The notes: generated by a model from the sequence alone, not told the origin. Numbered from the stretch's first letter, positions 2,363-33,040 are shown. The stretch: DNA of 42,078 nt from Candidatus Sulfomarinibacteraceae bacterium (GCA_035464315.1 DATHSI010000227.1:1-42078), one strand, 5' to 3'. A program made the numbers and translations.

Positions 2363-3010
2363 ATGTCGCAGGACACAGACCCGGATGACGATTGGCGCGA
2401 TGCCGTGCGCGAGGCGATGCATGAGGCAACGCTTCACGAAGCGCAGCAGCGCTTTGACAGCAGGGAGCCAGTTTACAATTATCGCTGGGAGCATGTGCGA
2501 GCTGTTCGTACGCTGGCCCTGAAGCTGGCACGGATGATGGGAGCCGACGAGGAGGTTGTGGAGGCCGCGGCATGGCTGCACGATGTGCGCAAGGTGGCCG
2601 GTGAGGAACACCCTGAAGAGGGGGCCGAATTTGCGCGCCGTTTCCTGGCCCAGACCAATTTTCCCCCCCATAAGATCGAACGCGTGGCCCAGGCCATTGC
2701 CGCGCACAAGGGGCTGTGGCGCGAGGAACCGTTACAGAGCGTGGAGGCGCAGGTGTTGTGGGATGCGGATAAACTCTCCAAGCTTGGCCTGACCGCCGCC
2801 TTCCACTGGACGGGGATGAGCTTCGCCAATGGCAATCCGCTGAGTACCGAAGACCTGATCGCCATGGCCCGCGATACCGATTGGCAGGAGAGGACTGTCG
2901 CCAGCATGCACACCCCGGCGGCGCGCCGGACCGCCGCAGAACGGTTGGCTTCGTATAACAAGCTCTGGGATTCTCTTGAGGCGGAACTGGAGGGGCGGGA
3001 TTTGCAGTGA
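2363..3010 (+). CDS. HD-domain metal-dependent phosphohydrolase
   Basis: Motifs AAWLHDVRKV and LWDADKL (the H...HD...D pattern of the HD superfamily). ATG at 2363 is preceded by GGAG at a 5-nt spacing. The ORF track starts earlier at a GTG (2282); which start is used is uncertain. Confidence 0.6.
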   Translation: MSQDTDPDDDWRDAVREAMHEATLHEAQQRFDSREPVYNYRWEHVRAVRTLALKLARMMGADEEVVEAAAWLHDVRKVAGEEHPEEGAEFARRFLAQTNFPPHKIERVAQAIAAHKGLWREEPLQSVEAQVLWDADKLSKLGLTAAFHWTGMSFANGNPLSTEDLIAMARDTDWQERTVASMHTPAARRTAAERLASYNKLWDSLEAELEGRDLQ

Positions 3011-3074: not shown

Positions 3075-4322
3075 TCAACCACCTTTATAGAAAAAGTCCG
3101 TCACCACTGGGTGTACATAACCAGGGCGGAACAGCGCCTGCCATTCCCAGGTGTCGTCGAAGCTGCCGCCTTCCCGGTTGGCCAGGGCCCAGTAGCTGAA
3201 GGCCATGAAGTATGGTTCCGCGTTCTGCATATAGCCGTACTGGTAGCGCAACAGGCGCGTGACCGTTTGCGGGTTGTCGCTATAGCTGCCGCCTTCGGTG
3301 CCAATCATGGGCAGAGAGCGATGCAGGTGGTTGCGCACGATCTGGTCATAGTTGCGGAAAAGCAGGAAACCGTGGGGATCGTCCAGCGGGCGCGTGCCGT
3401 GGTAATTGTGTACGGAGAGCCAGGCCCAATTTAGCACTGCCGTGTCGCCATTATATTTAATGGCGCGCAGGGTGCGGTCCAGGAAGGCGTAGTGGTCGTA
3501 AGCGCCGCCGGGACTCAGCGCACCGAAGCCGGGCAGGCCTCCGTTGGCGATCACCTGTCGCGCTTCATCAGTCCACACCCGCGCATAGAGGTTGGGGTTC
3601 GCCGATCCCTGGTGGTTCTCATCGTTCACGTTTGGCTCGTTGTAGAGTTGGAAATAATAGACGCCGCGCTGGCGGTAGTGGGCAACCATGGCGCCCAGAT
3701 CGCCGTCGTGAGGCGTCAGGGTGCTGCGGTAGACGCGCATGACGGGCATGATGCCATTTGCCACCAGGCGATCTACCAGATAATCGTTGTCGCCGATGTT
3801 GGTGCCGTCATTGAGAAAGACCACCCACTTGATGTGCATTTTCACCATTTCGGCCACAAAACGATCCACGACGGCCGGTTCCTGCTTCACGGTGGGGATC
3901 CAATGCATGCCCCAGCCGTTGTCGCCCGCGGGCCGCGGGTAGGCCTCGACAGGAATCATGTCTCTGGGGCCGTACTCTGTGAGCGGGCGCACGTCGGATG
4001 TGGCGGTAGGCGTCGGCGTCGTGGTTGGCGTTTCAGTCGGCGTGGATGTGGGCGTGATCGGGGTGTTGGTGGGAATGGGCAGGGGGGTGGCTGTCGCTGC
4101 TCGTTCCCGGGTTGGCGGTGGCTTTGTCGCGGGCGCCGTAGGCGGCGGCCCGGCCGGCGTCCAGGTCGGTGGGATAACCGTCTCCGTGGGCGTTGCAGTC
4201 TGCGCCGCGGAGGCCAGAGTAGGCAGCGCAGCCATAGCCTCCAGTGGCGGCAACTGGCAGCCGCTTAGAGACCATGCCAGCAGAAAAAGCGTGATTCTTC
4301 CCAGGCGGGAAAACGTTCTCAC
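3075..4322 (-). CDS. lipoprotein glycoside hydrolase, clan GH-A (GH5-like TIM barrel) with Pro/Thr-rich linker
   Basis: Lipobox LSGC after a signal peptide, then a long PT-rich linker. QLYNEPN (NEP acid/base motif) and MIGTEGG (TExG nucleophile motif) are typical of clan GH-A families. Confidence 0.55.
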   Translation of the reverse strand: MRTFSRLGRITLFLLAWSLSGCQLPPLEAMAALPTLASAAQTATPTETVIPPTWTPAGPPPTAPATKPPPTRERAATATPLPIPTNTPITPTSTPTETPTTTPTPTATSDVRPLTEYGPRDMIPVEAYPRPAGDNGWGMHWIPTVKQEPAVVDRFVAEMVKMHIKWVVFLNDGTNIGDNDYLVDRLVANGIMPVMRVYRSTLTPHDGDLGAMVAHYRQRGVYYFQLYNEPNVNDENHQGSANPNLYARVWTDEARQVIANGGLPGFGALSPGGAYDHYAFLDRTLRAIKYNGDTAVLNWAWLSVHNYHGTRPLDDPHGFLLFRNYDQIVRNHLHRSLPMIGTEGGSYSDNPQTVTRLLRYQYGYMQNAEPYFMAFSYWALANREGGSFDDTWEWQALFRPGYVHPVVTDFFYKGG

Positions 4323-4607
4323 AATGCGGTGTCCGGTCGTTCTGTTGCCATGGTGTCATCTCCTATCGTGAGTGTAAGAAGAAAAGCCCGAGACGAAATG
4401 GGTAAATGTGGCTAGAGGCGCCCACGCCCGTTTGCGGCCGGCCGGAGCCGCTTAACATAGCGCAATTGTACTAGTCCGTTAGAACTCTGCACATAATTGT
4501 CGCAAGCAGTATAATATTAAGGGTAGGGAACTCCATCTTCCTACAAGGATGCCTTCACCTGTGAAAGGAGGTACCCGTCGCCAGCTTCTGCATGTCCCCA
4601 ATGGCCA

Positions 4608-5588
4608 TTGTGTGGGCAATCGATCCCAAAACGAGCTCAAGGAGAAATTCCGACCCTGTTTGATAGCATTGCAGATATTCCAGGAGTTGATCAGGATCTG
4701 TCGCCAGAGGCGCGCCAGGGGCTGCAGTTGTTTTGGGACGTATACCGCGAGCGTTATCAGGACGCCGAGCGCCACCTGCAGCAGGAGATGGCCGATCATG
4801 AGGTGTTTGGCAAATTTGTAAAGCAGGTAGATCCGGATCAGGCTGCCGAGCAGGGCAGACGCTCGTATCAACTACTTGACGACGCCATTCGTAATGACAA
4901 CTGGGGCGCTTACTTCAGTCACCTGGGCCAGCAGGGCGCCTATTATGCCCATCGCGACGTGCGTTTTGCCAGCTGGTTTGAAGTGATTCGTAGCCTGGAG
5001 CGTTTCATAATTCCACACCTCATCGACGCTTACGGGGACGACGAGGCCCAGTTTGAACTCGCGCTGTGCGGCATGTCCACCTACGTGACGATGTCTACGG
5101 CGGTGCTCAGTGAAGCGTATATGTCGGCGAAAGAGGAAACGATTGTGCGACAACGGGAAGCGATCCGCGAGCTTTCCACACCCGTGTTACAGTTGCGCGA
5201 CGGATTGTTGATCTTGCCGATTATCGGTGTGCTGGACACGCAGCGCGCGCAACAGTTGACCCACACGCTATTGCACGCCATCCGCCGCCTGCGGGGGCGT
5301 ATTGTGGTCATCGATGTTACCGGCGTGCCCGTCGTAGACTCGCAGGTAGCCAGCTATCTGATACAGACGGTGGATGCTGCACGGCTTATGGGCGCCAAAT
5401 CGATATTGACCGGCCTTTCGCCGGAAGTTGCCCAGACGTTGGTCACCGTTGGCGTCGACCTGCGGGCGGTCTTGACGTTGGGCGATCTTCAGAGTGGTTT
5501 GGAGAAAGCGGAGCATTTCCTGGGATACCGCGTGGAAAAGCATGACGATACTGGCTATTGGGATGGGGGCCAGGAGCAGATACCGTGA
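4608..5588 (+). CDS. rsbR: RsbR-like stressosome sensor (N-terminal non-heme globin-like domain + C-terminal STAS)
   Basis: C-terminal STAS signature LLILPIIGVLDTQRAQQLTHTLL...IVVIDVTGVPVVDSQVASYL. The N-terminal ~170 aa helical domain has RsbR-like architecture. The start codon is uncertain: the frame has no ATG near the N-terminus and the track start at 4608 is a TTG. Confidence 0.7.
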   Translation: MCGQSIPKRAQGEIPTLFDSIADIPGVDQDLSPEARQGLQLFWDVYRERYQDAERHLQQEMADHEVFGKFVKQVDPDQAAEQGRRSYQLLDDAIRNDNWGAYFSHLGQQGAYYAHRDVRFASWFEVIRSLERFIIPHLIDAYGDDEAQFELALCGMSTYVTMSTAVLSEAYMSAKEETIVRQREAIRELSTPVLQLRDGLLILPIIGVLDTQRAQQLTHTLLHAIRRLRGRIVVIDVTGVPVVDSQVASYLIQTVDAARLMGAKSILTGLSPEVAQTLVTVGVDLRAVLTLGDLQSGLEKAEHFLGYRVEKHDDTGYWDGGQEQIP

Positions 5589-5959
5589 CCGTACCTGTTC
5601 TAAAGCAACATCACTTTCTGATCGCATCCGTGCAGAGCGCGCTGACGGATGATGACATGGAGGACATGCAGCGCCGGCTGGTGCTCCGTGTGGGCGACGA
5701 TCGCATTCGGGGTGTGATTATTGACGTTACAGTCGTAGACGTGTTGGACTCCTACTCCTCGCGCACTCTGCGCGCGATTGCCGACATGATTCGACTGCGT
5801 GGTGCGGAGACCGTGATCGTGGGCATCCAACCAGATGTGGCCTTCGCCATGATTCAACTGGGACTCACGCTGGAGGATATACCCACAGCCCTGGATCTGG
5901 AAGAAGGGATTCGTCTTCTGAACGCGCGGATCCGAAGGCATCACCATTATGGACAGTGA
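5585..5959 (+). CDS. rsbS: RsbS-like STAS-domain stressosome scaffold / antagonist protein
   Basis: Single STAS domain (VLDSYSSRTLRAIADMIRLRGAETVIVGIQPDVAF). A GTG at 5585 overlaps the rsbR stop (GTGA). The track ORF begins at 5558. Confidence 0.7.
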   Translation: MTVPVLKQHHFLIASVQSALTDDDMEDMQRRLVLRVGDDRIRGVIIDVTVVDVLDSYSSRTLRAIADMIRLRGAETVIVGIQPDVAFAMIQLGLTLEDIPTALDLEEGIRLLNARIRRHHHYGQ

Positions 5960-6368
5960 GAAACGGGTTGCGATTCAAGGTACGAGCGACATCGTCAGCG
6001 CCCGCCAGCAGGGCCGCCAGTTGGCCATAGATCTCGGTTTCAGTACCAGTGACCAGGCTTTGATCGCCACGGCCATCTCCGAGGTGGCGCGCAACATTGT
6101 TCTATACGCCAGGTGGGGCGCGATCACTTTCTCCATCGTCGAGAAAAACGGGCGGCGGGGTATGCGCATCGTTGCCACCGATGATGGGCCAGGAATTAAA
6201 GACGTTGAGCTTGCCATGCAGGATGGCTATTCCACAAGCCAGGGGCTGGGTCTGGGGTTGCCCGGCGCCCGTCGTCTGATGGACGATTTTGAACTTGAGT
6301 CAGAAGTGGGACGCGGCACGACCATCGTCATGAGCAAGTGGTTGAAACCTGATATCGTCCGGCCGTGA
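5949..6368 (+). CDS. rsbT: RsbT-like serine kinase (GHKL/HATPase_c anti-sigma-regulatory-factor type)
   Basis: 139 aa with ISEVARNIVLYA...TDDGPGIKDVELAMQDGYSTSQGLGLGLPGARRLMD, typical of RsbT/RsbW-type kinases. It sits directly after the STAS protein and overlaps the rsbS 3' end. Confidence 0.7.
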   Translation: MDSEKRVAIQGTSDIVSARQQGRQLAIDLGFSTSDQALIATAISEVARNIVLYARWGAITFSIVEKNGRRGMRIVATDDGPGIKDVELAMQDGYSTSQGLGLGLPGARRLMDDFELESEVGRGTTIVMSKWLKPDIVRP

Positions 6369-6979
6369 GTGTAGGCAGGATCATCGAAGTTGGCGTGGCG
6401 GCTGCTCCTCATCCGGGCCAACTGGTTTCTGGAGATCGCCACACCATCGTACAACGCGAGGAAGGAGACGTGCTGGTTGCACTGGTCGACGCCCTGGGTC
6501 ACGGTCAGGAGGCCGCCGCGACGGCGGCGGCGGCCGTAACCGCGATTGAGACGTATGCCGGAGAGTCGTTGGTAACGCTGGTCGAGCGTTGCCATGAGAA
6601 GTTGCGACGCTCGCGGGGCGTGGCCATGAGTCTGGCTCACTTTTCGCCCGGCGGACGTCTGCGCTGGCTCAGCGTAGGCAATGTGGACGGTGTGCTCCTC
6701 AGTAGCGACCACAACAATCTCTTTAGCACAAGGCACATGGTGTTGCGTGGAGGAGTTGTTGGTTACCGCCTTCCCCCGCTCAAACTTCGAGAGATAGACG
6801 TCTCAGCGCGCGATATCATGATCATGGCCACAGATGGCATCCGGCGGGACTTCGCCGCGGCTGCCCACGCCGGCAGACAGGACCCCCAGGTCCTTGCTGA
6901 CTCTATTCTGCAGAGGTATGGGCGAAGGTCTGATGATGCACTGGTTCTCGTCGCCGAATATCGTGGAGAAACGTCATGA
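6365..6979 (+). CDS. rsbX: RsbX-like PP2C/SpoIIE-family serine phosphatase
   Basis: LVALVDALGHGQEAA and MIMATDGI motifs of PP2C-type phosphatases. ~200 aa single domain, as for RsbX. GTGA overlap with rsbT. Confidence 0.65.
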   Translation: MSVGRIIEVGVAAAPHPGQLVSGDRHTIVQREEGDVLVALVDALGHGQEAAATAAAAVTAIETYAGESLVTLVERCHEKLRRSRGVAMSLAHFSPGGRLRWLSVGNVDGVLLSSDHNNLFSTRHMVLRGGVVGYRLPPLKLREIDVSARDIMIMATDGIRRDFAAAAHAGRQDPQVLADSILQRYGRRSDDALVLVAEYRGETS

Positions 6980-9414
6980 CTGTCCAGGCCGATTATTTCC
7001 AACAACAGTACGCCACAGCCTTGCGGGAGTTCCTGCGCAGCGGTGACGAGCAGGCGCTACAGACAGCGTATGAATTGGGCCGCTCGGCGACGCAGTCGGA
7101 GCTGCCGCTATTGGACCTGGCGACCATCTACCACGAGGCGCTGCGCTCTATGCTGGTCAGAGAGGCGTCTCCCGGCGAGGAAGTGGCGTTGCTCACGGCC
7201 GCCGGCACCTTTTTCCTGGAGAGCCTGACCTCGCTGGAGATGACGCTGCGCCGCCTGCAGGAAACCAACCGCTCCCTACGCGTGCTCAACGACCGCTTGC
7301 AGAAGGCCAACGAAACGCTGGAAGAGCGAGTTCAGCAGCGCACGTCCCGCCTGAGCCAAAGCGTGCAACTGTTACAAAAGGAAATCGCGCGCCGGCATCG
7401 CGCGCAGCAGGCGCTACGCGAGAGCGAAGCGCGTTATCGGCGTCTGGTGGAGCGCTCGCCGGCGCCCACGGCGGTTTTTACACAGGATGCTATTCTCTTC
7501 GTCAATACTGCCGCCACCCACCTTCTTGGCGCACGAGAGCCCGAGGAGCTGGTCGGGAAGCCGGTCACCTCGATCTTGGCGGAAGGCAGGCGGCAGGGGA
7601 TGTTGCAGGGGATCGATGCTATGCTGGCAGAGGGTAATGAGTACGCCCCAGTGGAAGTTCAGCTGGTGCGCCTGGATGGCGAAATCATCGACGTGGAGAT
7701 TGTAGCCACCCATATCGCTTACGAAGGGCGCACGGCGATTCAATTAGTCGGCTACGACGTAACCGAGCGCAGGCAGGCAGAGGCAGCGGAGCGCGAGCAG
7801 CGCGCATTGGCTGAAGCATTGGCTGCCTCAGCGGCATCCCTGAACCGCACCCTGGACTTCGACGAGGTTTTGCAGCGCGCCCTGATTCACATTGACAATG
7901 TGCTGCCGCACGATGGGGCCAATATCATGCTTATCGAAGGAGACGTGGCGCGGGTTGTACACTGTCGCGGCTACGATGAACGGATTGATCGGGGACGCAT
8001 CGTCGGCCTGGAGCTGCCGATGAATCACGTTGGCCCGCTGCGCCATATGTGGGAGAGGGGAGAAGCTATCGTCATTTCCGACACACGGCACAATGACCAG
8101 TGGTTGACGATGGAGCCCACTGCCTGGGTGCGCTCCTACGTCGCGGCACCCATCCGGTTGGAGGGCGAGACGATAGGTTTTCTCAGCGCGGACGGCGCCC
8201 GGCCCAATCAGTTTGCGGCGAAGCACGCAGAACGTCTGACGGCCTTTGCTGACCAGGTGTCTCTGGCCATGCAAAACGCGCGTCTCTACGAACAGTTGAG
8301 CAACTACAGCGCTTCTTTGGAACAGGCGGTGAGCGAGCGCACGGAGGAACTGCAGGCGGCTAACAAACGGCTGGAAACGATTCTGCAATCGGTGGGTGAT
8401 GCGCTACTGGTCGTCGATCAGCAGGGGCGAGTGGAACAGGTGAACCCGGCCTTTGAACAACAGACGGGCTACGGGTCGGACGCCGTGCGCGAGCGCCGTC
8501 TCTCCGATTTCCTGCCGGGGCTTGAGATCCCCTGGCAGACGCTTCGGGAGAACACATCTGCCGGCGAGAAGCCAGGTCTATGGCACGGTGAGTTCCAGTT
8601 GGAGCGTAGCGATGGTACGCTCTATGATGCCGCAGTGACGGTGGCGCCCCTTTATGATGGCGACGGTGACCACACCGGCTTCGTAGCCGCCCTGATGGAC
8701 GTCAGCCTGCTCAAGGAAGTGGCGCGTAGCAAGGATGCGTTCGCCGCCAACGTCTCGCACGAGCTGCGCACGCCTATCACCAGCCTGAAGCTGAATCACT
8801 CCCTTGCCTCACATAGCGAAGAGGGCGAAAATCCTTACCTGGAGCGGCTGGGTCGGGACATCGACCGGCTAAATTCGCTCATCGAGGATCTGCTACGTCT
8901 ATCGCGGTTGGAGCAAGGGCAAGTGGAACTGGAGCTTGACGCGGTAGATCTCGGCGCCCTGGCGCGCCGCTATGTGGAAGACCGCCAGGCGTTGGCCGAG
9001 AGCCTTGGTCTACAATTGGAGTTTCGCCAGGAAGGCACATTCCCCACAATCAACGCCGATCCCGGCCTGTTGGAACAGGTTGTCAGCATTTTTCTGACCA
9101 ATGCCATGAACTATACTCCGGCCGGAGGCGAGGTGTTGGTGACTGTGGAATCGCGGCGCAGCGAAGGCCGTGATTGGGTGGGGGTTCGCGTGAGCGACAC
9201 AGGGCCGGGCCTCACCGACGACGATCAGGCGCACCTCTTTGAACGCTTTTATCGCGGCAAAACGGGGCTGGCATCCGGCGTGCCCGGCACCGGTCTGGGC
9301 CTGAACATTGCGCGCGAGATCGTAACGCGCCACGATGGCCACATAGAGGTGCAAAGCGAGGGCGTTCCGGGCAAGGGTGCTGCTTTCACGGCCTGGTTCC
9401 CGGCGCCTGCCTGA
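6976..9414 (+). CDS. sensor histidine kinase: RsbU_N-like N-terminal domain - coiled coil - PAS - PAS - GAF - HisKA - HATPase_c
   Basis: N-terminus DYFQQQYATALREFLRSGDEQALQTAYELGRSATQSELPLLDLATIYHEALRSML aligns by eye with B. subtilis RsbU N-domain (REVIEQRYHQLLSRYIAELTETSLYQAQKFSRKTIEHQIPPEEIISIHRKVLKEL). H-box FAANVSHELRTPITSL. G-box GTGLGLNIAREIV. ATGA overlap with rsbX. Confidence 0.8.
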   Translation: MTVQADYFQQQYATALREFLRSGDEQALQTAYELGRSATQSELPLLDLATIYHEALRSMLVREASPGEEVALLTAAGTFFLESLTSLEMTLRRLQETNRSLRVLNDRLQKANETLEERVQQRTSRLSQSVQLLQKEIARRHRAQQALRESEARYRRLVERSPAPTAVFTQDAILFVNTAATHLLGAREPEELVGKPVTSILAEGRRQGMLQGIDAMLAEGNEYAPVEVQLVRLDGEIIDVEIVATHIAYEGRTAIQLVGYDVTERRQAEAAEREQRALAEALAASAASLNRTLDFDEVLQRALIHIDNVLPHDGANIMLIEGDVARVVHCRGYDERIDRGRIVGLELPMNHVGPLRHMWERGEAIVISDTRHNDQWLTMEPTAWVRSYVAAPIRLEGETIGFLSADGARPNQFAAKHAERLTAFADQVSLAMQNARLYEQLSNYSASLEQAVSERTEELQAANKRLETILQSVGDALLVVDQQGRVEQVNPAFEQQTGYGSDAVRERRLSDFLPGLEIPWQTLRENTSAGEKPGLWHGEFQLERSDGTLYDAAVTVAPLYDGDGDHTGFVAALMDVSLLKEVARSKDAFAANVSHELRTPITSLKLNHSLASHSEEGENPYLERLGRDIDRLNSLIEDLLRLSRLEQGQVELELDAVDLGALARRYVEDRQALAESLGLQLEFRQEGTFPTINADPGLLEQVVSIFLTNAMNYTPAGGEVLVTVESRRSEGRDWVGVRVSDTGPGLTDDDQAHLFERFYRGKTGLASGVPGTGLGLNIAREIVTRHDGHIEVQSEGVPGKGAAFTAWFPAPA

Positions 9415-9532
9415 GTGCAGATGCACATTTAACACGTTTCTGAAAGCAAATACAACCTTTTGCAACCAACGACTCCTGTTCGCGTATAGGAGGATAAGAT
9501 GGCATTAGCCGATAATCTTCGGAGGATGAATG

Positions 9533-9991
9533 ATGACAGAAGAACATGAACCAAATGTGGAAGAGTTGAAGTCTGAAGAACGCATCAAGATAGAGGTGGA
9601 AGAGGAGGAGCCCTTTAAGACCGAGAAGGGGGCTCCCCGTGCAGATGTGTCGGACGCCCTACGTGATCTGGGCCGGCAATTTGCGGAAACCCTGCAGTCG
9701 GCCTGGAACAGCCAGGAGCGTCGCGAGTTTGAGGCCGAGGTCAAAGAAGGCGTGCGTCGATTTGGCGACGAGGTGAATAAAGTCTTCAGTGAAGCCAAAG
9801 AGAGCCCGACGGCCAAGAAAGTGAAAGAGGAGGCCGAGGACGTGCGCGGGCGCGTGGAAAGCGGCGAGCTAGGACGCAAGGCGCGCAGCAGCATGGTTGA
9901 GGGCCTACAGTGGTTGAGCCAGGAGTTGGCCCGGCTTGCCGAGCAGTTCAGCCCGCCCGAGGAGCAGGCTGGCGACGACGAGAAACTGTAG
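9533..9991 (+). CDS. hypothetical acidic Glu/Lys-rich protein
   Basis: ORF with GGAGGA SD upstream of ATGATG. Highly charged low-complexity sequence with no recognisable domain. Confidence 0.4.
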   Translation: MTEEHEPNVEELKSEERIKIEVEEEEPFKTEKGAPRADVSDALRDLGRQFAETLQSAWNSQERREFEAEVKEGVRRFGDEVNKVFSEAKESPTAKKVKEEAEDVRGRVESGELGRKARSSMVEGLQWLSQELARLAEQFSPPEEQAGDDEKL

Positions 9992-10013
9992 GGGGCGGGT
10001 GTCGCTGTTGCGC

Positions 10014-10934
10014 CTAGAGATGCGGCAGCACAGTGTGGGCCATGGCTGCCAGCCCGTCCAGATCGTCCAGGTCCAGCCACTGTAACAGAATACGGTAGGC
10101 GCCGGCTTCCTCGTAGGCTTTGATCTGTTGCACAAAGTCGTCGCCGGCGCCTACGATCAGTCCGTGCTGGCGCAACTCTTCGACGCTGCGCCCGCGCGCT
10201 GCCGCTTTTTCGTCAACTTCGGTTTCGTCGCGGCCGAAGATGGTGCCGGTCATCAACGAGCGCCGCACGTCCTGCGGCTGCCGGTCCTCAGCTTCCAGCA
10301 ATTCGTCAAGCCGGCTGTTAAGCTCGGCAAAGTGCTCGGCTGTGGTAAACACGCCGTTCCACTCCTGCGCGTAACGCGCGGCAAGCGGCAGTGTGCGCCG
10401 CGGACCGTTGCCGCCGACAAGAATGGGCGGACCTCCCGCGCGTTGTGGGCGAGGCAGAAGCAACGCCTCGTTCAGTTGATAGTACTCTCCGTCAAAATCG
10501 ACCGGCTCATCCTGCTGTAGCAGGCGGGTGACCACCTCCATTCCTTCTTCAAAGCGATCAAAACGTTGGGCCGTGGGCAGCAAATCATGCCCGAACTTAT
10601 GATGTTCGCGCTCCTGCCAGCCAGCGCCGAGCCCTAAGATGAGACGTCCGCCGGAGAGATCGTCTACGCCGGCTGCCATGCGCGCTGTCATCGTTGGCTC
10701 GCGGAAGGAAAAGGGCGTGACCATCGGCCCGAACTCTAGCCGCTCACTGTTATCCGCCAGCCAGGTCAACGACACCCACAACTCAAGCGAATCCTTATCG
10801 GGCGCGCTGGCGTTCGTATAGTGGTCGGACCGGAAGAGCCCGACGAAACCCAACTCCTCCACCGCGCGCGCTATCCGCCGCCAACGCGGCCAGTTCAATC
10901 CGTTTTGTCCTTCAATCATGATGGCAACTTCCAT
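10014..10934 (-). CDS. luciferase-like monooxygenase (LLM) family flavin/F420-dependent oxidoreductase
   Basis: N-terminal MEVAIMIEGQNGLNWPRWRRIARAVEELGFVGLFRSDHY is the classic LLM TIM-barrel start. The protein has LLM length and overall composition. Confidence 0.8.
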   Translation of the reverse strand: MEVAIMIEGQNGLNWPRWRRIARAVEELGFVGLFRSDHYTNASAPDKDSLELWVSLTWLADNSERLEFGPMVTPFSFREPTMTARMAAGVDDLSGGRLILGLGAGWQEREHHKFGHDLLPTAQRFDRFEEGMEVVTRLLQQDEPVDFDGEYYQLNEALLLPRPQRAGGPPILVGGNGPRRTLPLAARYAQEWNGVFTTAEHFAELNSRLDELLEAEDRQPQDVRRSLMTGTIFGRDETEVDEKAAARGRSVEELRQHGLIVGAGDDFVQQIKAYEEAGAYRILLQWLDLDDLDGLAAMAHTVLPHL

Positions 10935-11060
10935 GGCGTCTCCTCCGGGACCGATGATTCAACGAACAGTAGCCAATTATAAGCACACTCTGCCCATGGC
11001 GCCCACTGCGGCTTGTGGCGATTGGAGCGGGAGTATCTGCCTGGCGCTCACTCCGCTTGC

Positions 11061-11089
11061 TTGACCAGGGCCGGGCCCACTGCTATAGT
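11061..11089 (+). promoter_or_regulatory. candidate sigma70-type promoter (TTGACC - 17 nt - TATAGT) upstream of the ECF sigma gene
   Basis: TTGACC at 11061-11066, a 17-nt spacer, TATAGT at 11084-11089. Located ~90 nt upstream of the start codon. Confidence 0.35.
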
Positions 11090-11175
11090 TGCCACTCGAA
11101 GCGACTGCCGAGCCTCCACTGAATATCCGTTGAGTTGTCCTGGCACTGCCCGGACCCTGTCAAAGAAGGACATAC

Positions 11176-11874
11176 ATGCCTGCGAACGACGTTTTCAAAT
11201 CGTTGGCGCTGGACATGCTGGCCCAGCGTTGCGCGGAAGAAAGTGATCACTTCTTTCACCGCAGGGAGCATGACCCACGATACTGCTACGAGCTGTTTCG
11301 GCGGGCCATAGTCGAGCACAATGAGGCAGCGTGGGCCAGGATTTGCCGCAACTATCGGCCCCTTGTCGCCGGCTGGGTCAAGCGACAGCGCGCCTTTCGC
11401 CAGTCAGGCGAGGAGGTCAGTTTCTTTGTTAACGGCGCTTTCGCCAAGATGTGGTCGGCGATGTCCCCTCAGAAATTCGATTCATTTTCTGATCTAAAAT
11501 CCCTGCTGCGCTATCTTCAACTGTGCGTGTCCAGTGTTGTGACCGACTACGCGCGGAACGCCGACTATCACCAGATGTTAGATGATTTGCCGCCAGGCAT
11601 TGAAGAAGCTACTGGTGTGGACGTGGAGCAACGCGCCCTGGACAGCACGGTGCGTTCCAGTTTCTGGCAGGCGGTGGATGCTCGCCTTAACGACGACAAG
11701 GAGCGGCTCGTCGTTCACTATTCTTACATAGTGGGTTTCAAGCCCGGCGATATTTATCGCGAGCAGCAGGAACTTTTCGATGATGTACGCGAGATTTATC
11801 GTATTAAGGAAAATGTCCTGGCGCGGTTGCGCCGTGACGATGCTTTGCAACAATTGTTGCGACAGCATGCCTGA
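11176..11874 (+). CDS. ECF-type sigma-70 family factor
   Basis: Region-2-like segment YELFRRAIVEHNEAAWARICRNYRPLVAGWVKRQ...FVNGAFAKMWS. Region-4 HTH-like segment RLVVHYSYIVGFKPGDIYREQQEL. Confidence 0.7.
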   Translation: MPANDVFKSLALDMLAQRCAEESDHFFHRREHDPRYCYELFRRAIVEHNEAAWARICRNYRPLVAGWVKRQRAFRQSGEEVSFFVNGAFAKMWSAMSPQKFDSFSDLKSLLRYLQLCVSSVVTDYARNADYHQMLDDLPPGIEEATGVDVEQRALDSTVRSSFWQAVDARLNDDKERLVVHYSYIVGFKPGDIYREQQELFDDVREIYRIKENVLARLRRDDALQQLLRQHA

Positions 11875-11934
11875 AAACGGTGCTGACTCTCGTTCATTAG
11901 GGCAAAGAAAGGTGGGTTGTAAGAGGAGAAACCC

Positions 11935-12654
11935 ATGAATGAAGAGCACAGAACCCCGCAGGCCAGCGATGCGGAACTGCTGGTCTACCTTGATGGTGAA
12001 CTACCACCCCGACGTGCCCGTGAAATTGAACAATCCGCAAGTAACCGTCAGCGATTGGCCGAGCTGGCGCAGCAAGAGCGCCAGCTGAAGCAGCACCTCT
12101 ACCGCAGCGCCTGCCCTGATGCCCATCAACTGGGCGAATACCATTTGCAGTTGCTCTCTGGGCCGGAGGCGGAGCGCATTGCAGCACACCTCGAAATCTG
12201 TCCTTATTGTGCGCAAGAGCTAAAGCAACTACTGGCGTACCTCGATGACGTGGCATCCGAACTGGAATACAGTGTGTTGGAGCGCCTAAAGGTGCTCGTG
12301 GCGCGGGTGTCGCCGGATCTGGGCGTTGGCGGTCCCCTGGCAGAGCCGGCGCTGGCAGGCGTCCGAGGCGACGATACGGGCCCCCTGGTTTACAGAGCAG
12401 AGGATGTCCAGGTCTCGCTGGAGGTGCAGGATGACGTCAACGCCGCCGATCACCGCAGTGTATTAGGCCTGGTCCTGGGCGCCGATGCGCAGGGTTGGGG
12501 CGTTTATCTCTGGCGCGAAGATGAGGAGATAGCGGACACGACGGTCGACGAGTTGGGCAACTTCATGCTCAGTGGCGTCGAACCGGATACCTATCGCCTC
12601 TTGCTTCACGGTGAACAGGTCCTGATCCACATTCCGGAACTCACTGTTTCCTGA
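11935..12654 (+). CDS. soluble zf-HC2 anti-sigma factor
   Basis: HLEICPYCAQELKQL matches the Hx3Cx2C zinc-finger anti-sigma motif. No predicted TM helix. Immediately downstream of the ECF sigma gene. Confidence 0.65.
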   Translation: MNEEHRTPQASDAELLVYLDGELPPRRAREIEQSASNRQRLAELAQQERQLKQHLYRSACPDAHQLGEYHLQLLSGPEAERIAAHLEICPYCAQELKQLLAYLDDVASELEYSVLERLKVLVARVSPDLGVGGPLAEPALAGVRGDDTGPLVYRAEDVQVSLEVQDDVNAADHRSVLGLVLGADAQGWGVYLWREDEEIADTTVDELGNFMLSGVEPDTYRLLLHGEQVLIHIPELTVS

Positions 12655-12659
12655 GGGAG

Positions 12660-15611
12660 ATGCCGGGTCAGGCAACCTGTTCCTATTTAGCGACCGCTGA
12701 ATTGCTTATGAATATAGAAGATGTGCTGGCGCAGTTGTGGGCCTTGCCCGACAGCGTAAGCCGGCGACGATTTCTGGATGAAACGGCCGCTGCACGGACG
12801 CCGGCCCGGTTGCAGGAATTGGGTGTTGCCCTGAAGGCCAGCGCCGACCAGTTCCTGCACAGTAACATCGAGCGCTGTCTGGAGGCGGCGGCGCTGTTGC
12901 AGCATCTGGCCCAAACCAGCGGATACGTATCGCTGCGCGCCTTAGGCTTACTGGCCGAAGCCAATGCCCGGGCCATTGGGTTGAGCGAGTACCGGCAAGC
13001 GATCACGCTCTATAATGAGGCGGGAGACATCTATGAGGCAAATGGGCAGGATGAAGAGTGGGCAAGGGCGCAGATCGGCAAGCTGTGGCCTCTTGCTACC
13101 CTGGGCCGCTATGATGAGGCTTTGAAAACGGGCCGGCGGGCAGCGGTCAAGTTGCGCGCCGCCGAAGCCTGGCTGCCGTTGGCCAAATTGACGTCTAACA
13201 TTGCCATTATCTACGGGCGCATGGGGCAGGATCGTGAGGCGCTGGCCAACTTTGAGGACGCTCGCGATAGCTACCGCCAGTTAGGGGAGAAGGGGCGTCC
13301 TTACCTGGCGCGGGTTGAACTGAACCGCGCCATCATTCTGCGTAATCTGGGCCGCTTCCAGGGTTCTATCGCCGCCAGCGAGGCGGCGCTGGGCTACCTG
13401 CCGGAAGGCGCCGAACAGCGAATCGACCGCGCTCGCGCAAAGCAGAGCCTGGCTATCACCTATTTCGTCCTGGGCAAATATAACGAGGCGCTTCAGCTCC
13501 TGGACGAAGTGCGCGACGTTTTCCTCGACGACGGGCGCCAGCGCGACGCCATTCTCGTAGAGCTGTTTATCAGCGACTGCCTCCTGCAGTTGCGCCGTTT
13601 CAGGGCCGTTCTGGAAAAGTGTGCCCAGGTGCGGGCTCTTTTTCAGGATTTGGGCACGCGCTTTGAAGTGGCCCAGGCTGTGCTCAATGAGGCAGTGGCT
13701 TATGCGGGGTTAGAGCAGTACGAGGCAGCGGACAGCTCATTGCAGGAAGCGCGCGATCTGTTTCGGCAGGAGAACAACGAGGTCTGGCTTGCATTTGCCG
13801 ATCTGGAGTGGGCATCTTTGCTGCTTCACCAGGGGCAGCTGGAGGAGAGCGGCGCTATTGCCCGGCGCTGCGCCGCCATTTTTGGCGACCAACAGCAGGT
13901 GGTGCCCCAGGCGCAGGCCTGGCTGGTGGCGGCGCGGGCAGCTGCGGGCCAGAATCGCGTGGCGCGGGCGCGCGAACTGCTGCGGGAAGCGCTGGCGGTC
14001 GGTGAAGAACATTCGCTGCCTACGCTCGTCTACCAGGCGCGTCACCTTCTGGGGGGGCTGGCGCGGGACGCACGGAACGGCAGCCAGGCGTTGCAGCAGT
14101 TTGACGCGGCTATTGAGGCCCTGGAGCAGCTACGTGGACGCTTGATGGTGGAGTATCGCGCCGATTTTCTGGAGGACAAGAACGTCCTTTACGAAGACGC
14201 CGTGAGCCTGTGTGCCGAGTTGCAACGCCCGCAGCTGGGCCTGGAGTATGCCGAGCGGGCTAAGTCCAGGGCGCTGCTCGATTTGCTGGCCTACCGCCTG
14301 GACGTGGGCCTTCAGGCCCGTCGTGAGGAAGACCATCCACTCGTCGCCGAGCTGACGGCGCTGCGTGCGGAACGTGATCGTCTCTACCGCCGTTGGCAGA
14401 GCGGTGAAGGGCACACAGAGCGGGGCTGGGCCACCGCCGACGACGGCTGGCAGGAAGCGCAGCAGGACGTGTTGCGCATCGAGAATCGCATCACAGAATT
14501 ATGGCACCGGCTCCTGATCCATAACGCCGACTATGCGCGGGATGCTGCGCTGTGGCAGGTGCGCACCGAACCGGTACAGCCCTATCTGGATGATGATACG
14601 CTGCTGTTGGAATATTTTGTGGCCCGCGGGCAGCTGTTACTTTTTCTGGTCACGGCGGAATCCATCGAGGTGCAGCCGCTGGCAGCGCCTATGGCGCGCG
14701 TGCAGCAGTTGTCGCAGCTTCTGTGGCTTAACCTGCGCTCCGTTCCCCGCAGCGATGCGTCGCAGGAGGCGCACCTGACCAAAAACGCGCGCGCCATCCT
14801 GCAACGGCTCTACGATCTCCTGTTGCGCCCGCTGCTGCCACGTCTGGAGCAGTGGCCGAAAGTGATTGTGGTGCCCCACGGCCCATTGCACTATCTGCCC
14901 TTCCATGCCCTGCACGATGGACGGCGCTATCTGCTGCAGGATCACGAGGTCAGCTATCTGCCCGGCGCCAGCTTCTTGCGCTATTGTCATCAGGCCACAC
15001 TGGGCCACGACGCAGGGCCGGTGGGCACGGATGTGGTGGCTGTGGGCCATTCCCTCGGCGGATCGTTGCCCTACACGGTGGACGAAGCTCGCGCTGTGGC
15101 TTCGCTGTGGCAGGGACAGGTCCTCGTCGAAGAGGAAGCCACGCGGCAGGAAGTGGGCCGCATGGCGGCCCTGGCCCGGCTGTTGCATGTAGCGGCGCAC
15201 GGTGACTTTCGCCCCGATAATCCCCTCTTCTCCGGCCTCTCTCTGGACGATGGCTGGCTGACCACCCTGGATATTTTCAACCTTCGGCTGCAGGCGTCGC
15301 TGGTCACGCTCAGCGCCTGCCAGACCGGGCGCAATGTGGTAGCCGGCGGCGACGAGTTGTTGGGCCTTATGCGCGCTTTTCTCTATGCCGGGGCTGCCTC
15401 TCTGGTGCTCTCCTTTTGGGCCGTAGAGGATCGCTCGACGGCGCGGCTGATGGAGACCTTCTACAACCGGCTGGCGCGCGGAGAGAGTAAAGGGGCCGCT
15501 CTACGGGCGGCACAGCGCCACTTTATCAGTGATGGCCACTCTGCCGGAGAAGAACCGCATCCCTATTACTGGGCTCCATTCTTCCTGGTTGGGGCCACCA
15601 CCGCTCTGTAG
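12660..15611 (+). CDS. TPR-repeat protein with C-terminal CHAT (caspase-like) protease domain
   Basis: N-terminal ~600 aa of TPR-like helical repeats. The C-terminal domain has the His/Cys dyad context LLHVAAHGDF and LVTLSACQTGRN typical of CHAT domains. No signal peptide. Confidence 0.8.
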   Translation: MPGQATCSYLATAELLMNIEDVLAQLWALPDSVSRRRFLDETAAARTPARLQELGVALKASADQFLHSNIERCLEAAALLQHLAQTSGYVSLRALGLLAEANARAIGLSEYRQAITLYNEAGDIYEANGQDEEWARAQIGKLWPLATLGRYDEALKTGRRAAVKLRAAEAWLPLAKLTSNIAIIYGRMGQDREALANFEDARDSYRQLGEKGRPYLARVELNRAIILRNLGRFQGSIAASEAALGYLPEGAEQRIDRARAKQSLAITYFVLGKYNEALQLLDEVRDVFLDDGRQRDAILVELFISDCLLQLRRFRAVLEKCAQVRALFQDLGTRFEVAQAVLNEAVAYAGLEQYEAADSSLQEARDLFRQENNEVWLAFADLEWASLLLHQGQLEESGAIARRCAAIFGDQQQVVPQAQAWLVAARAAAGQNRVARARELLREALAVGEEHSLPTLVYQARHLLGGLARDARNGSQALQQFDAAIEALEQLRGRLMVEYRADFLEDKNVLYEDAVSLCAELQRPQLGLEYAERAKSRALLDLLAYRLDVGLQARREEDHPLVAELTALRAERDRLYRRWQSGEGHTERGWATADDGWQEAQQDVLRIENRITELWHRLLIHNADYARDAALWQVRTEPVQPYLDDDTLLLEYFVARGQLLLFLVTAESIEVQPLAAPMARVQQLSQLLWLNLRSVPRSDASQEAHLTKNARAILQRLYDLLLRPLLPRLEQWPKVIVVPHGPLHYLPFHALHDGRRYLLQDHEVSYLPGASFLRYCHQATLGHDAGPVGTDVVAVGHSLGGSLPYTVDEARAVASLWQGQVLVEEEATRQEVGRMAALARLLHVAAHGDFRPDNPLFSGLSLDDGWLTTLDIFNLRLQASLVTLSACQTGRNVVAGGDELLGLMRAFLYAGAASLVLSFWAVEDRSTARLMETFYNRLARGESKGAALRAAQRHFISDGHSAGEEPHPYYWAPFFLVGATTAL

Positions 15612-15702
15612 ATCTTTCCGGAAAAGACGCTCGCTCTTCGTTTACATCCATGAAGTAGTTCCAGAGAGGGCTGCTTCTTTTCATCGTCTTAAATCGTGCC
15701 CT

Positions 15703-17445
15703 ATGCAACCGGAGTTCGTCATCATGTTGAAACGTCATTCGCAACTCTTTCTGCTCATCGCAGCCCTGGCAGCTTTTTCCCTGCTCGCCGTGGGCTGCCA
15801 GCCACAGCCGGAGCCGACGCCAGCACCGGAACCGTTCCCCGCACCGGTTGAGTTTGAGGCCAACGTCCTGCCGCCCGGTCCCGATCTACCCCGGGTCCAA
15901 TTGCGTCCGGGCCAGGCGCTGGTCGACGAACAGCTTGTGATCACCGGCGTCGGCGCAGACATCGACCGCGTGCTCGGTGCGCTGCCCGAGTTGCAGCTAG
16001 AGCCGTTGACCAGCACCTCTTTCGACTACCTGGAACGATACCAGTTGCCTGCGCCGGGCGGCGACCGGGATCAGCAGCAGAGCGTGGGCAAACGGCGCCG
16101 CAGCGGTCTGAGCTCCGTCATGCAGCAGGAGATGGCCACCCTGCGCGTTGACCTCTACGCGTTCTCCGCTGGCACTCCGCCGCTCTCCGACACACTGCAG
16201 ATCATCGCCGACACGGTTGAAGAGCTGGGCCAGGAACAGCAAGTACGCGTGGTCGCCGAGCCCAACTATGTGATGGGCTTCGAGATTACGGGCGACCCCT
16301 GGGCGGTTGAAGGCAGCCCGTGGGCCGTAGAGGGCAGCCCCTGGGCCGTGGAAGGGAGCCCCGCCGACGGCGGGCCGCATGCCAGCGATCACTTCTGGCA
16401 GCAGTGGGCCTTAGATGCCGGCAGCGGCATTGGCTTATTCTCTGCCGGCGCGCCTCCCGCCGGGCGTAATGCGGAGGGCGTGGGCGAGGGGATACGCGTT
16501 GCCGTTTTCGACACCTCGCCGTTTTCCGGCCCCGGCGGCTACCGTTTTGATCGCTGGGGACCGCCGGATGTACCGTCGCTGGCCCTCACTGTTTCAGAGC
16601 CGGTGGTGGTGCCCGTTTCTATGACCGGCGAGGATATTGTACTGATCAGCGACCACGGGCTCTTTGTCTCCGGCCTGGCCTACGCTGTGGCTCCCGCCGC
16701 CGAGATTCACCTGGTCAAGGTGTTGAATGAGCATGGGCAGGGCACGCTGCAGGCTTTCATCGACGCCCTGAACCTGTATATGCAGGAAAACGCCTCTCCG
16801 CCGGACGGCCTGAACAATACGATTATCAACCTCAGCCTGGGCACGTCGGAACCGGATGACGAGGAACTGCCGCCGGAAGCGCGACGCGCCATTGCGCGCA
16901 TGCTGGCGGTGTGGGGCTACCGGCCTCTGGCGGGCGAAGACAGCGTCGTCTTTTCGCTGGAATTGCCCATGCTCATCGCTGAAGGGCTGGGAGCCACCAT
17001 CGTCGCCGCTTCGGGCAATGACTCCATGAGCCCGCCGGAGGCCGCGCCGCTGCCGTCGCAGATTCCCGCCGCCTATCCGCAGATCCTTGGGGTCGAGGCC
17101 AGCAACCAGCAGCAGGCGCGTTCCTGCTTTGCTAACGAGGGCGATCTGGCTGCCCCGGGCGGCGATGGAGACGCCAACTGTGAGCCGGACCTGGAAGCCT
17201 GCGAAGGCATCGAGGGCGGCAGTTGCGGGGCCGGCGTTGTGAGCTATGTGCTGGCGGAACACGAGGGATTCGCCTACTGGGCGGGCACTTCGTTTGCCAC
17301 CCCCCTGGTCAGCGGCCTGGCGGGCCTGGTCCAGGAGGCGGGCGCCGGCAACCCCGACGTGGTACGTCAGACGGTGCTCTGCTCCGCTCAGAACACGGGC
17401 ATCGTAGATGTGGTGGAGGCGCTGACCAGTTGTGCCACGCCGTAG
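15703..17445 (+). CDS. subtilisin-like (S8) serine peptidase lipoprotein with PWAVEGS heptapeptide repeats
   Basis: Signal/lipobox LLAVGC. Asp region AVFDTS, His region SDHGLFVSGLAYAV, Ser region GTSFATPLVSGLAGL. Start taken at ATG 15703 (alternative 15724); the track ORF is extended upstream. Confidence 0.7.
   Translation: MQPEFVIMLKRHSQLFLLIAALAAFSLLAVGCQPQPEPTPAPEPFPAPVEFEANVLPPGPDLPRVQLRPGQALVDEQLVITGVGADIDRVLGALPELQLEPLTSTSFDYLERYQLPAPGGDRDQQQSVGKRRRSGLSSVMQQEMATLRVDLYAFSAGTPPLSDTLQIIADTVEELGQEQQVRVVAEPNYVMGFEITGDPWAVEGSPWAVEGSPWAVEGSPADGGPHASDHFWQQWALDAGSGIGLFSAGAPPAGRNAEGVGEGIRVAVFDTSPFSGPGGYRFDRWGPPDVPSLALTVSEPVVVPVSMTGEDIVLISDHGLFVSGLAYAVAPAAEIHLVKVLNEHGQGTLQAFIDALNLYMQENASPPDGLNNTIINLSLGTSEPDDEELPPEARRAIARMLAVWGYRPLAGEDSVVFSLELPMLIAEGLGATIVAASGNDSMSPPEAAPLPSQIPAAYPQILGVEASNQQQARSCFANEGDLAAPGGDGDANCEPDLEACEGIEGGSCGAGVVSYVLAEHEGFAYWAGTSFATPLVSGLAGLVQEAGAGNPDVVRQTVLCSAQNTGIVDVVEALTSCATP
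16297..16359 (+). repeat. 3 x 21-bp imperfect tandem repeat encoding PWAVEGS x3 inside the S8 peptidase gene
   Basis: ccctgggcggttgaaggcagc / ccgtgggccgtagagggcagc / ccctgggccgtggaagggagc. Confidence 0.6.
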
Positions 17446-31941: not shown

Positions 31942-33040
31942 AGATTCTCAGCGTTTCCTGCGCCGCGCGCGCCCAGCTGAAACGGGCGGCCTGTTCCAGG
32001 CCTAGATGCCGGCGTTGATGGTAGTCGTCGCTGTCCTGCAGCAGGCGGCGAATCACGTTCGCCATTTCCTCGGTGCTGGTGGGATCGAAGTAGGCCGCTG
32101 CGTCGCCGCCCACTTCAGGGTGCGAGCTGCTGTTGCTGGCGGCGACGACCTGGCCACAGGCCATATGCTCCAGGAGCGGCAGGCCGAAGCCTTCGTAGAG
32201 GCTGGGCTGCACGGCGAGGTCGGCGGCGGCAATGACGGCGGGTAAATCGTCGTCCGCCACCCAGCCCAACGGCACAACCGCATCCTGTAGGCCCAGCTCT
32301 TCGATGCGCGCGAAGAAATCGTCGTAGAGCCAGCCCTTGCTGCCTGCCAGGACCAGGTGCAGGTCGGGGTAGTCGCGGCGCACGATGAGCAGCGCGTCCA
32401 GTAGGCGACTCAGGTTCTTGCGCGGTTCGATGGTGCCCAGGTGAATCAGGAACTGCGGGGGCAGATCGTACTGTGCCCGCACGCGTTGCACGTCTCGCGC
32501 CTCCGGTGGGCGGAAATGATCGGCCGCTGCTTCGTGAACGACGTGTATCTTAGCCGGATCGACCGCGTAATGCGTGATGATATCCTGTCGTGTGGCCTGC
32601 GAAACGGCCACGATGGCTGCGGCGCGCCGGCAGAAAATGGGCATGGCTGCGTTCAGAAACCAATAATTTAACTTTTTGTGGTAGGCGGGAAAGAGCTTGA
32701 AAATCAGGTCGTGCACCGTGAGGACGGTGGGCACGCCGCGCAGGGGCAAGAGCAGATGCTCCGTGCTGTGGAACAGCGTGGCGTCCGGCACCAGGCGGTT
32801 GAAACCCTTCCGGCTGAGGTGGCCCAGCAACACCAGCATGCGCCACGGTTTGTAGCCCAGCTTTATGCTGCGGCGGGGAGCCGAGGCCAACGAGGTGGGC
32901 AGGACACCGTCGGCCCCTCTATTATAGAAAAGAGCGATCTCCTCCGCTCGCTGCGCGCGCAAAGCCTGCGCCAGTCGCTCGCTGTAGCGGCCAAGGCCGG
33001 CCCGGCTGTGAACGGCTGCCGACACATCTACGTAGATCAC
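31922..33040 (-). CDS. glycosyltransferase family 4 (GT-B, retaining)
   Basis: EGFGLPLLEHMACGQVVAASNSSSHPEVGGDAAAYFDP is the classic GT4 EX7E region. GTG start at 33040. Confidence 0.75.
   Translation of the reverse strand: MIYVDVSAAVHSRAGLGRYSERLAQALRAQRAEEIALFYNRGADGVLPTSLASAPRRSIKLGYKPWRMLVLLGHLSRKGFNRLVPDATLFHSTEHLLLPLRGVPTVLTVHDLIFKLFPAYHKKLNYWFLNAAMPIFCRRAAAIVAVSQATRQDIITHYAVDPAKIHVVHEAAADHFRPPEARDVQRVRAQYDLPPQFLIHLGTIEPRKNLSRLLDALLIVRRDYPDLHLVLAGSKGWLYDDFFARIEELGLQDAVVPLGWVADDDLPAVIAAADLAVQPSLYEGFGLPLLEHMACGQVVAASNSSSHPEVGGDAAAYFDPTSTEEMANVIRRLLQDSDDYHQRRHLGLEQAARFSWARAAQETLRIYDAIRK

Follow-up and report, generated by a model that had tools for sequence, protein, structure and literature searches.

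An rsbRSTX stressosome operon with an RsbU_N-type histidine kinase as its candidate output in an uncultured bacterium

What does a stressosome control when its genes are followed by a histidine kinase (HK)? The rsbRSTX module is widespread, and eleven architectures have been described downstream of it, including HisKA/REC phosphorelays (Heinz et al. 2022, PMC9237108). Stressosomes outside the Bacillales are poorly understood, and among non-phosphatase outputs a single one, a diguanylate cyclase, has been shown to be controlled by RsbT. In this work, we analyzed a stretch of 42,078 nucleotides (hereafter, the window) from an uncultured bacterium deposited as Candidatus Sulfomarinibacteraceae (GCA_035464315.1, DATHSI010000227.1:1-42078), in which the genes rsbR, rsbS, rsbT and rsbX are followed by a gene encoding an HK of 812 residues (4608-9414, + strand). 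A preliminary description of this DNA had interpreted it as a stressosome wired to an HK, with an output other than sigma-B, and this interpretation was supported in all its testable parts. The best-supported reading, which we consider probable, is that RsbT from the stressosome docks on the HK, which then signals to a regulator encoded elsewhere. The wiring is real but already described and common, and it introduces no new principle or mechanism.

An RsbU_N histidine kinase coupled to rsbX

All five open reading frames (ORFs) were found at the positions given in Table 1. Their junctions were read directly from the sequence: rsbR and rsbS share a GTGA overlap, rsbS and rsbT overlap by 11 nucleotides, rsbT and rsbX again share GTGA, and rsbX is joined to the HK gene by ATGA. 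A consensus scan for sigma-70-like promoters gave the site at 4488-4515 as the sole promoter-like site on the + strand within 4250-10100. With four overlapping junctions and one promoter-like site upstream, rsbR, rsbS, rsbT, rsbX and the HK gene are a single translationally coupled operon, which encodes a minimal stressosome and its probable output kinase. The preliminary description had listed four consecutive, overlapping genes ahead of the HK and an ATGA overlap between rsbX and the kinase gene, and all these junctions were found again; its assignment of the four genes to the RsbR, RsbS, RsbT and RsbX types was borne out by the sequences, the phospho-acceptor residues and the gene order.

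The domain order of the HK is RsbU_N, long helix, PAS, GAF, PAS, HisKA and HATPase_c; the order PAS-PAS-GAF suggested earlier has to be corrected, as Pfam gives PAS-GAF-PAS. The phospho-acceptor His595 lies in the motif SHELRTP (at 594), and with NAMNY at 709, DTGPG at 741, FERFYR at 755 and GTGLGL at 771 the H, N, G1, F and G2 boxes of a class I (HisKA) kinase are all present. No transmembrane segment was predicted along the protein (maximum KD19 1.22), which is thus soluble, and inspection of the PAS and GAF domains by eye revealed neither LOV-type nor bilin-type cofactor motifs.

The N-terminus of the HK scored 31.4 bits against the Pfam RsbU_N model (PF08673), for which the gathering cut-off is 25.5, in a match spanning 52 of the 75 model positions; the orthologous kinase described below scored 28.8 bits. 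An exhaustive phmmer search of 1.84 billion representatives with residues 1-100 returned 1083 relatives at E <= 1e-3, and the best 150 of these 1083, with E down to 1e-16, all matched RsbU_N. When a profile of 26 N-domains was compared with the PDB, its top four matches were the B. subtilis RsbU structures 2j70, 2j6z, 1w53 and 2j6y (5.7e-7 to 1.6e-5), in alignments that run past the N-domain into the RsbU linker. We regard this sequence evidence as strong and decisive for the assignment to RsbU_N. The resemblance of the first ~90 residues to this domain had been pointed out in the preliminary description, which set a profile search as the refuting test; the match obtained lies above the cut-off.

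Structural evidence was compatible with this assignment, although weak. An AlphaFold2 (AF2) model of a 130-residue construct, computed from a 72-sequence alignment (predicted local distance difference test, pLDDT, 95.7), placed helices at 3-22, 25-40 and 45-63 and a fourth one at 69-129, unbroken to the end of the construct, a predicted layout that corresponds to the topology of RsbU_N plus linker. In a Foldseek search with the N-domain, RsbU structures ranked 2-4 with a probability of 0.96-0.97 and a target template modelling (TM) score of 0.63-0.67, but with E ~0.3. A word-indexed protein search with the N-terminal 162 residues gave 3 matches only. It could be argued that the RsbU_N match is spurious, reflecting no more than an unspecific bundle of helices with a coiled coil, and that the HK is an ordinary PAS/GAF kinase encoded beside rsbX by chance: a single-sequence phmmer search of residues 1-160 against the PDB returned coiled-coil noise only, the Pfam match leaves part of the model uncovered, and the fold searches are not specific. 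The score, however, lies above the curated cut-off, and the matches across the family, the profile search and the conserved adjacency to rsbX (see below) effectively refute this view.

In B. subtilis, the residues of RsbU that contact RsbT are E24, Y28, I74 and I78, and Arg19 and Arg23 of RsbT have been named as RsbU-binding (PMC12143880). Glu24 of RsbU corresponds in the HK to Glu25, which is invariant in the family, Ile74 to Leu81, a conservative replacement, and the neighboring Glu75 to Glu82. The RsbT encoded in the window keeps Arg19 and Arg23 and has Gln in place of Asn24. Furthermore, the linker motif 'RGFxEANxxLRxLNExL' is conserved in the RsbU_N family alignment. Residues 1-95 of the HK are presumably a module for RsbT docking and dimerization, and the linker helix that follows is presumed to be a dimeric coiled coil.

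The same arrangement recurs in other genomes. A scan of genome contigs yielded one true ortholog, L002, from the sole close genome among the species representatives; it has the same five genes in identical order, with a kinase 83% identical and an RsbR ~80% identical to those studied here; three other loci share only the kinase core. The five-gene locus is conserved in at least two assemblies. In addition, seven relatives of RsbR were inspected on contigs of about 21-490 kb, one of them being a lone RsbR paralogue. In 6/6 related rsbRSTX loci a gene for an RsbU_N protein comes directly after rsbX; five of these proteins are HKs and the sixth (L006, RsbU_N-GAF-GAF-PAS) is cut by the contig end. 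In this stressosome lineage, the adjacency of rsbX and RsbU_N is thus conserved, and the location of the regulator varies. Three loci encode short RsbU_N-HisKA-HATPase_c kinases of 333-343 residues, with a single receiver directly upstream of rsbR in L007, an NtrC-type activator in the same position in L008 and no adjacent response regulator in L011. L009 encodes an RsbU_N hybrid kinase with the receiver fused to it, L010 has four receiver genes downstream of its RsbU_N kinase, including REC-HDOD and REC-HD_5, and no response regulator was seen near the truncated gene of L006. An orphan kinase is one of several states in which these systems occur. Among the 150 nearest RsbU_N proteins, many of which are metagenomic fragments, ~40 are HKs, the domains counted being HisKA (29), HisKA_3 (11), PP2C (12), GAF (46) and receiver (5). 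Full-length relatives have the architectures RsbU_N-PAS-PAS-HisKA_3-HATPase_c, RsbU_N-GAF-HisKA-HATPase_c-REC and RsbU_N-GAF-PP2C-HATPase_c_2.

Possible partners were sought in the window by running Pfam on the larger ORFs and phmmer on all six frames of its whole length, with two receiver domains, the window's own RsbS, RsbT and RsbX, and one sigma-70 protein from a related locus as queries. Across the 42 kb, no receiver domain was found (six-frame phmmer, best E 0.15), nor were further STAS, GHKL or PP2C proteins. The one sigma-70 query retrieved no sigma-70 family protein, but a divergent extracytoplasmic function (ECF) sigma factor would probably escape it. A sigma-B partner-switching system is likewise not seen in the window, RsbU_N being fused to a kinase core and not to PP2C, and neither RsbV nor RsbW being present. 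Within these scans, and with one sigma-70 query, the earlier observation that RsbU, RsbV, RsbW, sigma-B and an adjacent response regulator are all missing holds. These data also bear on the idea that the N-domain of the HK merely competes for RsbT or serves as its sink, while the true output is an RsbU-type phosphatase with a partner-switching sigma cascade elsewhere in the genome, the HK adjusting only the amount of RsbT that arrives there. Only 42 kb of that genome are visible, the 12 PP2C members among the 150 nearest RsbU_N proteins are SpoIIE/PP2C phosphatases, some of them fused to an RsbW-like kinase, and in one of the related loci a sigma-70 gene occurs two genes downstream. However, the window scans, with one sigma-70 query, returned no genes for an RsbU-type phosphatase or sigma cascade, and the tight ATGA coupling of rsbX to the HK, together with the conserved adjacency, favors the HK as the primary partner. 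We hold a mere sink to be very improbable.

Table 1 Features of the rsbRSTX-HK locus, with positions in the window
Feature	Position	Strand	Description
Promoter-like site	4488..4515	+	TGCACA, 16 nt, TATAAT; 10/12 to consensus; consensus match only
rsbR	4608..5588	+	Sensor-globin-like N-domain, ~aa 33-142; linker helix, 146-189; C-terminal STAS
rsbS	5585..5959	+	Single STAS, 124 aa; GTG start in GTGA overlap with rsbR stop
rsbT	5949..6368	+	139-aa GHKL serine kinase; Pfam HATPase_c, HATPase_c_2
rsbX	6365..6979	+	Feedback phosphatase with a single PP2C domain, 204 aa; GTG as start codon, in GTGA overlap
HK	6976..9414	+	812 aa; seven-part architecture given in the text
HK, RsbU_N-type helical domain	6976..7260	+	aa 1-95; Pfam RsbU_N at aa 10-61
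HK, long linker helix	7261..7470	+	aa 96-165; continues last RsbU_N helix (AF2 prediction)
HK, PAS domain 1	7495..7752	+	aa 174-259; Pfam PAS_3, 30 bits
HK, GAF	7852..8277	+	aa 293-434; Pfam match at 293-433; GAF_2 3.6e-12, GAF 2e-9
HK, PAS domain 2	8368..8706	+	aa 465-577; Pfam PAS and PAS_9, up to 1e-25
HK, core	8731..9408	+	Pfam HisKA aa 586-648, 8e-16; HATPase_c aa 695-811, 4e-26
Acidic 153-aa protein	9530..9991	+	pI (isoelectric point) 4.66; no family match; function unassigned

The stressosome proteins

All five proteins of the operon could be identified and are complete, with their catalytic or phospho-acceptor residues in place. In RsbR, a STAS domain was detected at residues 192-284 (Pfam, 1e-14), and the closest solved structures were those of RsbR from Listeria (7b0u, 2e-31) and Vibrio vulnificus (7o0i, 2e-26). 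Thr211 ('IGVLDTQRA') and Ser245 ('VPVVDS') align with the two RsbT phospho-sites of the Listeria (T175 and T209) and B. subtilis (T171 and T205) proteins; the second site is thus Ser where the references have Thr. The AF2 model of RsbR (pLDDT 90) had RsbR in the Listeria stressosome (7b0u) as its top fold match, which lends indirect support to a predicted assembly with RsbS into a pseudo-icosahedral complex of large size, in which RsbT would be sequestered. The start codon of rsbR is uncertain among TTG 4608, CTG 4656 and TTG 4728. The last of these is the start in the public gene call, whereas CTG 4656 is preceded by AAGGAG at a distance of 11 nucleotides and matches, in the alignment, the ATG of the orthologous locus (83% identity); the AF2 model is of low confidence over the initial ~30 residues of the longest version.

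The N-terminal ~170 residues of RsbR have no Pfam match of their own. Homologues with 45-50% identity, in contrast, exceed the Pfam cut-off for Protoglobin (PF11563), and a family profile of 69 RsbR sequences aligned with V. vulnificus RsbR from end to end, globin domain included (1e-55), and weakly matched the globins of Geobacter and Anaeromyxobacter globin-coupled sensors. The modelled N-domain also matched the sensor globin of AfGcHK (target TM 0.77). The description of RsbR as a globin-like domain followed by STAS was therefore correct by family profile, fold match and the Protoglobin scores of its homologues.

Whether this globin could carry haem was judged from motifs of globin-coupled sensors, taking the His of 'geiHArvG' in V. 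vulnificus RsbR as the proximal F8 residue and the Tyr of 'FY' as the distal B10 residue. In the alignment, the presumed F8 position is Tyr113 here and Tyr in 66/69 members of the RsbR family, and the 'FY' motif is replaced by Leu57/Gln58, so that the distal Tyr is not conserved. With this placement of F8 and B10, the residues at both positions indicate that RsbR is probably a non-haem sensor globin, in which sensing of haem-bound O2 is unlikely. His115 ('YYAHRDVRF') was considered as an alternative proximal ligand and rejected, its position being variable in the family (R/Q/K/H). In the RsbR family, Trp43, Tyr46, Trp99, Tyr102 and Trp123 are near-invariant alongside Tyr113. These aromatic residues suggest that a pocket is conserved for some ligand other than haem, or else an unusual ligation by Tyr.

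RsbS matched STAS (Pfam, 2e-11) and B. subtilis RsbS (6jhk, 6e-23), and its Ser56 ('VLDSY') aligns with the phospho-acceptor Ser59 ('MIDSF') of the latter. Its start was set at GTG 5585 and not at TTG 5558 on account of the GTGA overlap with rsbR. RsbT shows the N box (ARN at 47), the G1 box (DDGPG at 78) and the G2 box (GLGLGL at 99). It is 54% identical, without gaps over 133 residues, to B. subtilis RsbT, a comparison that we count as supporting only; a PDB sequence search with RsbT found no RsbT chain. RsbX matched SpoIIE/PP2C (Pfam, 3e-14) and, among solved structures, Moorella MtX (3zt9, 2e-18) and B. subtilis RsbX (3w40, 1e-9). Since the alignment with MtX begins at residue 7, the long version of RsbX was preferred over the public call, which starts at 6470.

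A proposed route from RsbT to the kinase

From these components we infer the protein-protein steps, the direction of regulation and the place of a partner regulator as follows. RsbR and RsbS would form a STAS-domain scaffold that holds the small kinase RsbT and is equipped, through the N-domain of RsbR, with a sensor-globin fold that is probably non-haem. Upon a signal at RsbR, RsbT would phosphorylate Ser56 of RsbS and Thr211/Ser245 of RsbR and be freed, and RsbX would remove the phosphates from these sites and reset the complex. Free RsbT would dock on the dimeric RsbU_N domain and the adjoining linker helix of the soluble HK. By analogy with the proposal made for RsbU, docking would stabilize the coiled-coil linker; the change, passed via PAS-GAF-PAS to the DHp/CA core, would alter autophosphorylation at His595, and the HK would then signal to a response regulator whose gene lies elsewhere. 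Further inputs probably enter through the PAS and GAF domains, so that the HK may combine the signal of the stressosome with additional cues. Docking of RsbT is favored by the identity of the components, their phospho-acceptor and catalytic motifs, the operon structure, the RsbU_N membership, the docking residues, the conserved linkage and the precedents discussed below.

Several points weigh against this model. Literature searches for an experimental demonstration that RsbT activates an HK returned predictions only. Two of the contact residues of RsbU, on both of which RsbT binding depends in B. subtilis, are replaced in the HK, Tyr28 by Gln29 and Ile78 by Thr85. Moreover, between the docking site and His595 there are ~490 residues (the linker and three sensor domains), which would make coupling less direct than in the RsbU_N kinases of 333-343 residues of the related loci. 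Finally, the evidence covers 42 kb of the genome, in which no response regulator for the HK was found. Some of these points would also fit an HK that is co-transcribed with the stressosome genes but not controlled by RsbT docking, RsbU_N serving only for dimerization and the kinase responding to ligands of its PAS and GAF domains or to transient phosphorylation by RsbT. The three sensor domains do supply independent inputs, the equivalents of Tyr28 and Ile78 are not conserved, and RsbT-dependent phosphorylation has been proposed for downstream kinases in a study in which no interaction between VvRsbT and VvD1 was detected (Heinz 2022, PMC9237108). VvD1, however, has no RsbU_N, so that this negative result does not apply here. 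In addition, a domain for dimerization only could hardly explain why RsbU_N is strictly next after rsbX in 6/6 loci whose proteins vary in length and domain set, and Arg19 and Arg23 of RsbT as well as Glu25 of the RsbU_N domain are conserved. Altogether, we judge a kinase independent of docking to be unlikely, and docking of RsbT remains the reading that we prefer.

It is tempting to go one step further and regard the HK as a coincidence detector, which would combine RsbT at its RsbU_N domain and linker with small-molecule signals received via PAS-GAF-PAS, the Tyr113 globin pocket of RsbR binding a ligand other than haem-bound O2. This extension is tentative and, as a whole, somewhat doubtful. 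If true, it would mean that a two-component kinase with several inputs is naturally gated by a stressosome.

Modules of rsbRSTX followed by RsbU_N HKs reportedly featured already in a comparative survey made by Pane-Farre in 2005. RsbU_N HKs in rsbT/stressosome operons have since been stated explicitly (PMC9237108, Fig. 3; PMC12143880, Fig. 5E), and an AF2 dimer of an RsbU_N kinase has been presented together with the proposal that RsbT rigidifies the coiled-coil linker and thereby dimerizes the effector domains (Baral et al. 2025, PMC12143880). The novelty of an RsbU_N-HK output implied by the preliminary description was therefore overstated, this output being both published (PMC9237108, PMC12143880) and the rule in the related loci. 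The published systems and the present one share the R-S-T-X order, an output that begins with RsbU_N, a HisKA/HATPase_c kinase without sigma-B cascade and a predicted coiled-coil linker from RsbU_N to the effector. Particular to the locus studied here are the PAS-GAF-PAS insertion between linker and core, in a kinase of 812 residues compared with ~340 in those of the L007/L008/L011 type, the probably non-haem globin with Tyr at F8, the lack of a linked regulator, and an origin outside the Proteobacteria, from which the published examples were named, the present sequence coming from a metagenome-assembled genome (MAG) labelled Acidobacteriota or Chloroflexota.

The MtR-MtS-MtT-MtX module of Moorella thermoacetica with its output MtG is similar in being a minimal RSTX system in which RsbU_N precedes a GAF and a catalytic domain, and MtX is the closest solved structure to the present RsbX. 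MtG, however, is a diguanylate cyclase of the GGDEF type (cyclic di-GMP, c-di-GMP) and not an HK; control of the RsbU_N-GAF-GGDEF cyclase by RsbT was shown experimentally, as reported from Quin et al. 2012 in PMC12143880 and PMC9237108. With the RsbRST-RsbU-RsbV-RsbW-sigmaB-RsbX pathway of B. subtilis and Listeria, the locus shares homologous RsbR STAS, RsbS, RsbT, RsbX and RsbU_N. It differs in that the RsbU_N effector is an HK and not PP2C, that RsbV, RsbW and sigma-B were not found in the window, that rsbX directly follows rsbT, and that the single RsbR visible has a protoglobin-like N-domain instead of one of the RsbR_N type. In the O2-sensing stressosome of V. vulnificus and V. brasiliensis (PMC9237108, PMC4976288), two-component genes also follow an rsbRSTX operon, but VvD1 is devoid of the RsbU_N domain that the present HK possesses. 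The locus is a clean and complete example of an RsbU_N HK; as its catalytic residues are intact and the HK is soluble, it could serve for in vitro tests of whether RsbT switches kinases through a coiled-coil linker, as has been proposed.

Neighboring genes and origin of the sequence

The gene at 9530-9991 was correctly described before as encoding an acidic hypothetical protein (Table 1). It lies in the same place in L002 and is absent from the more distant related loci, and a scan of the 115-nucleotide gap between it and the HK gene showed no terminator-like site. It is possibly the last gene of the operon, and its membership of the stressosome module is doubtful given its absence from the more distant loci. 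Upstream of rsbR, a divergent gene (3075-4322, - strand) encodes a protein of 415 residues for which neither Pfam nor NCBIfam gave a match; it has a signal peptide of the lipoprotein type (LSGC), a long linker rich in Pro and Thr, and a domain at its C-terminus.

An HD/HDIG protein is encoded near the operon at 2363-3010 (+ strand). HD-type proteins recur in related loci: in L007 a GAF-HD protein and the receiver lie directly upstream (5184-6876), and in L010 the REC-HDOD and REC-HD_5 proteins are encoded downstream (11030-14270). These recurring phosphohydrolases may hint at a missing regulator of the REC-HD type.

The region 11176-17445 (+ strand) begins with an ORF of 232 residues without family match, followed by genes for a zf-HC2 anti-sigma-like protein (11935-12654), a TPR-CHAT protein of 983 residues (12660-15611) and an S8 peptidase (15724-17445). 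The first ORF (11176-11874), lying upstream of the zf-HC2 gene, was considered as a sigma factor and discarded, as it had no match in Pfam or NCBIfam; no sigma factor was thus detected at the place expected for it. A zf-HC2/kinase/TPR protein is likewise found near the stressosome genes of L008. Further downstream, two overlapping large ORFs of 467 and 565 residues (22450-25511, + strand) each have a partial Band_7/SPFH match only.

The window makes up the first 42 kb of the ENA metagenome contig ERZ27272644:k141_6458 (48.4 kb), and a regulator may lie in the remaining 6.3 kb. The taxonomic labels disagree: the NCBI record of the exact RsbR carries the name Candidatus Sulfomarinibacteraceae (Acidobacteriota), and L002 is deposited as a Chloroflexota MAG. 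One of the bins is probably mis-assigned, and the label is unreliable.

A cell-envelope glycosylation cluster occupies 29404-36139 (- strand) and encodes a TMEM260-like protein O-mannosyltransferase (845 residues), two GT4 glycosyltransferases, a WecG/TagA-family transferase and an NAD-dependent epimerase. An independent sequencing run (L013, Logan SRR9691048) contains an identical PrmC together with the same neighboring glycosyltransferase genes; the identity of PrmC places the organism in at least two public datasets.

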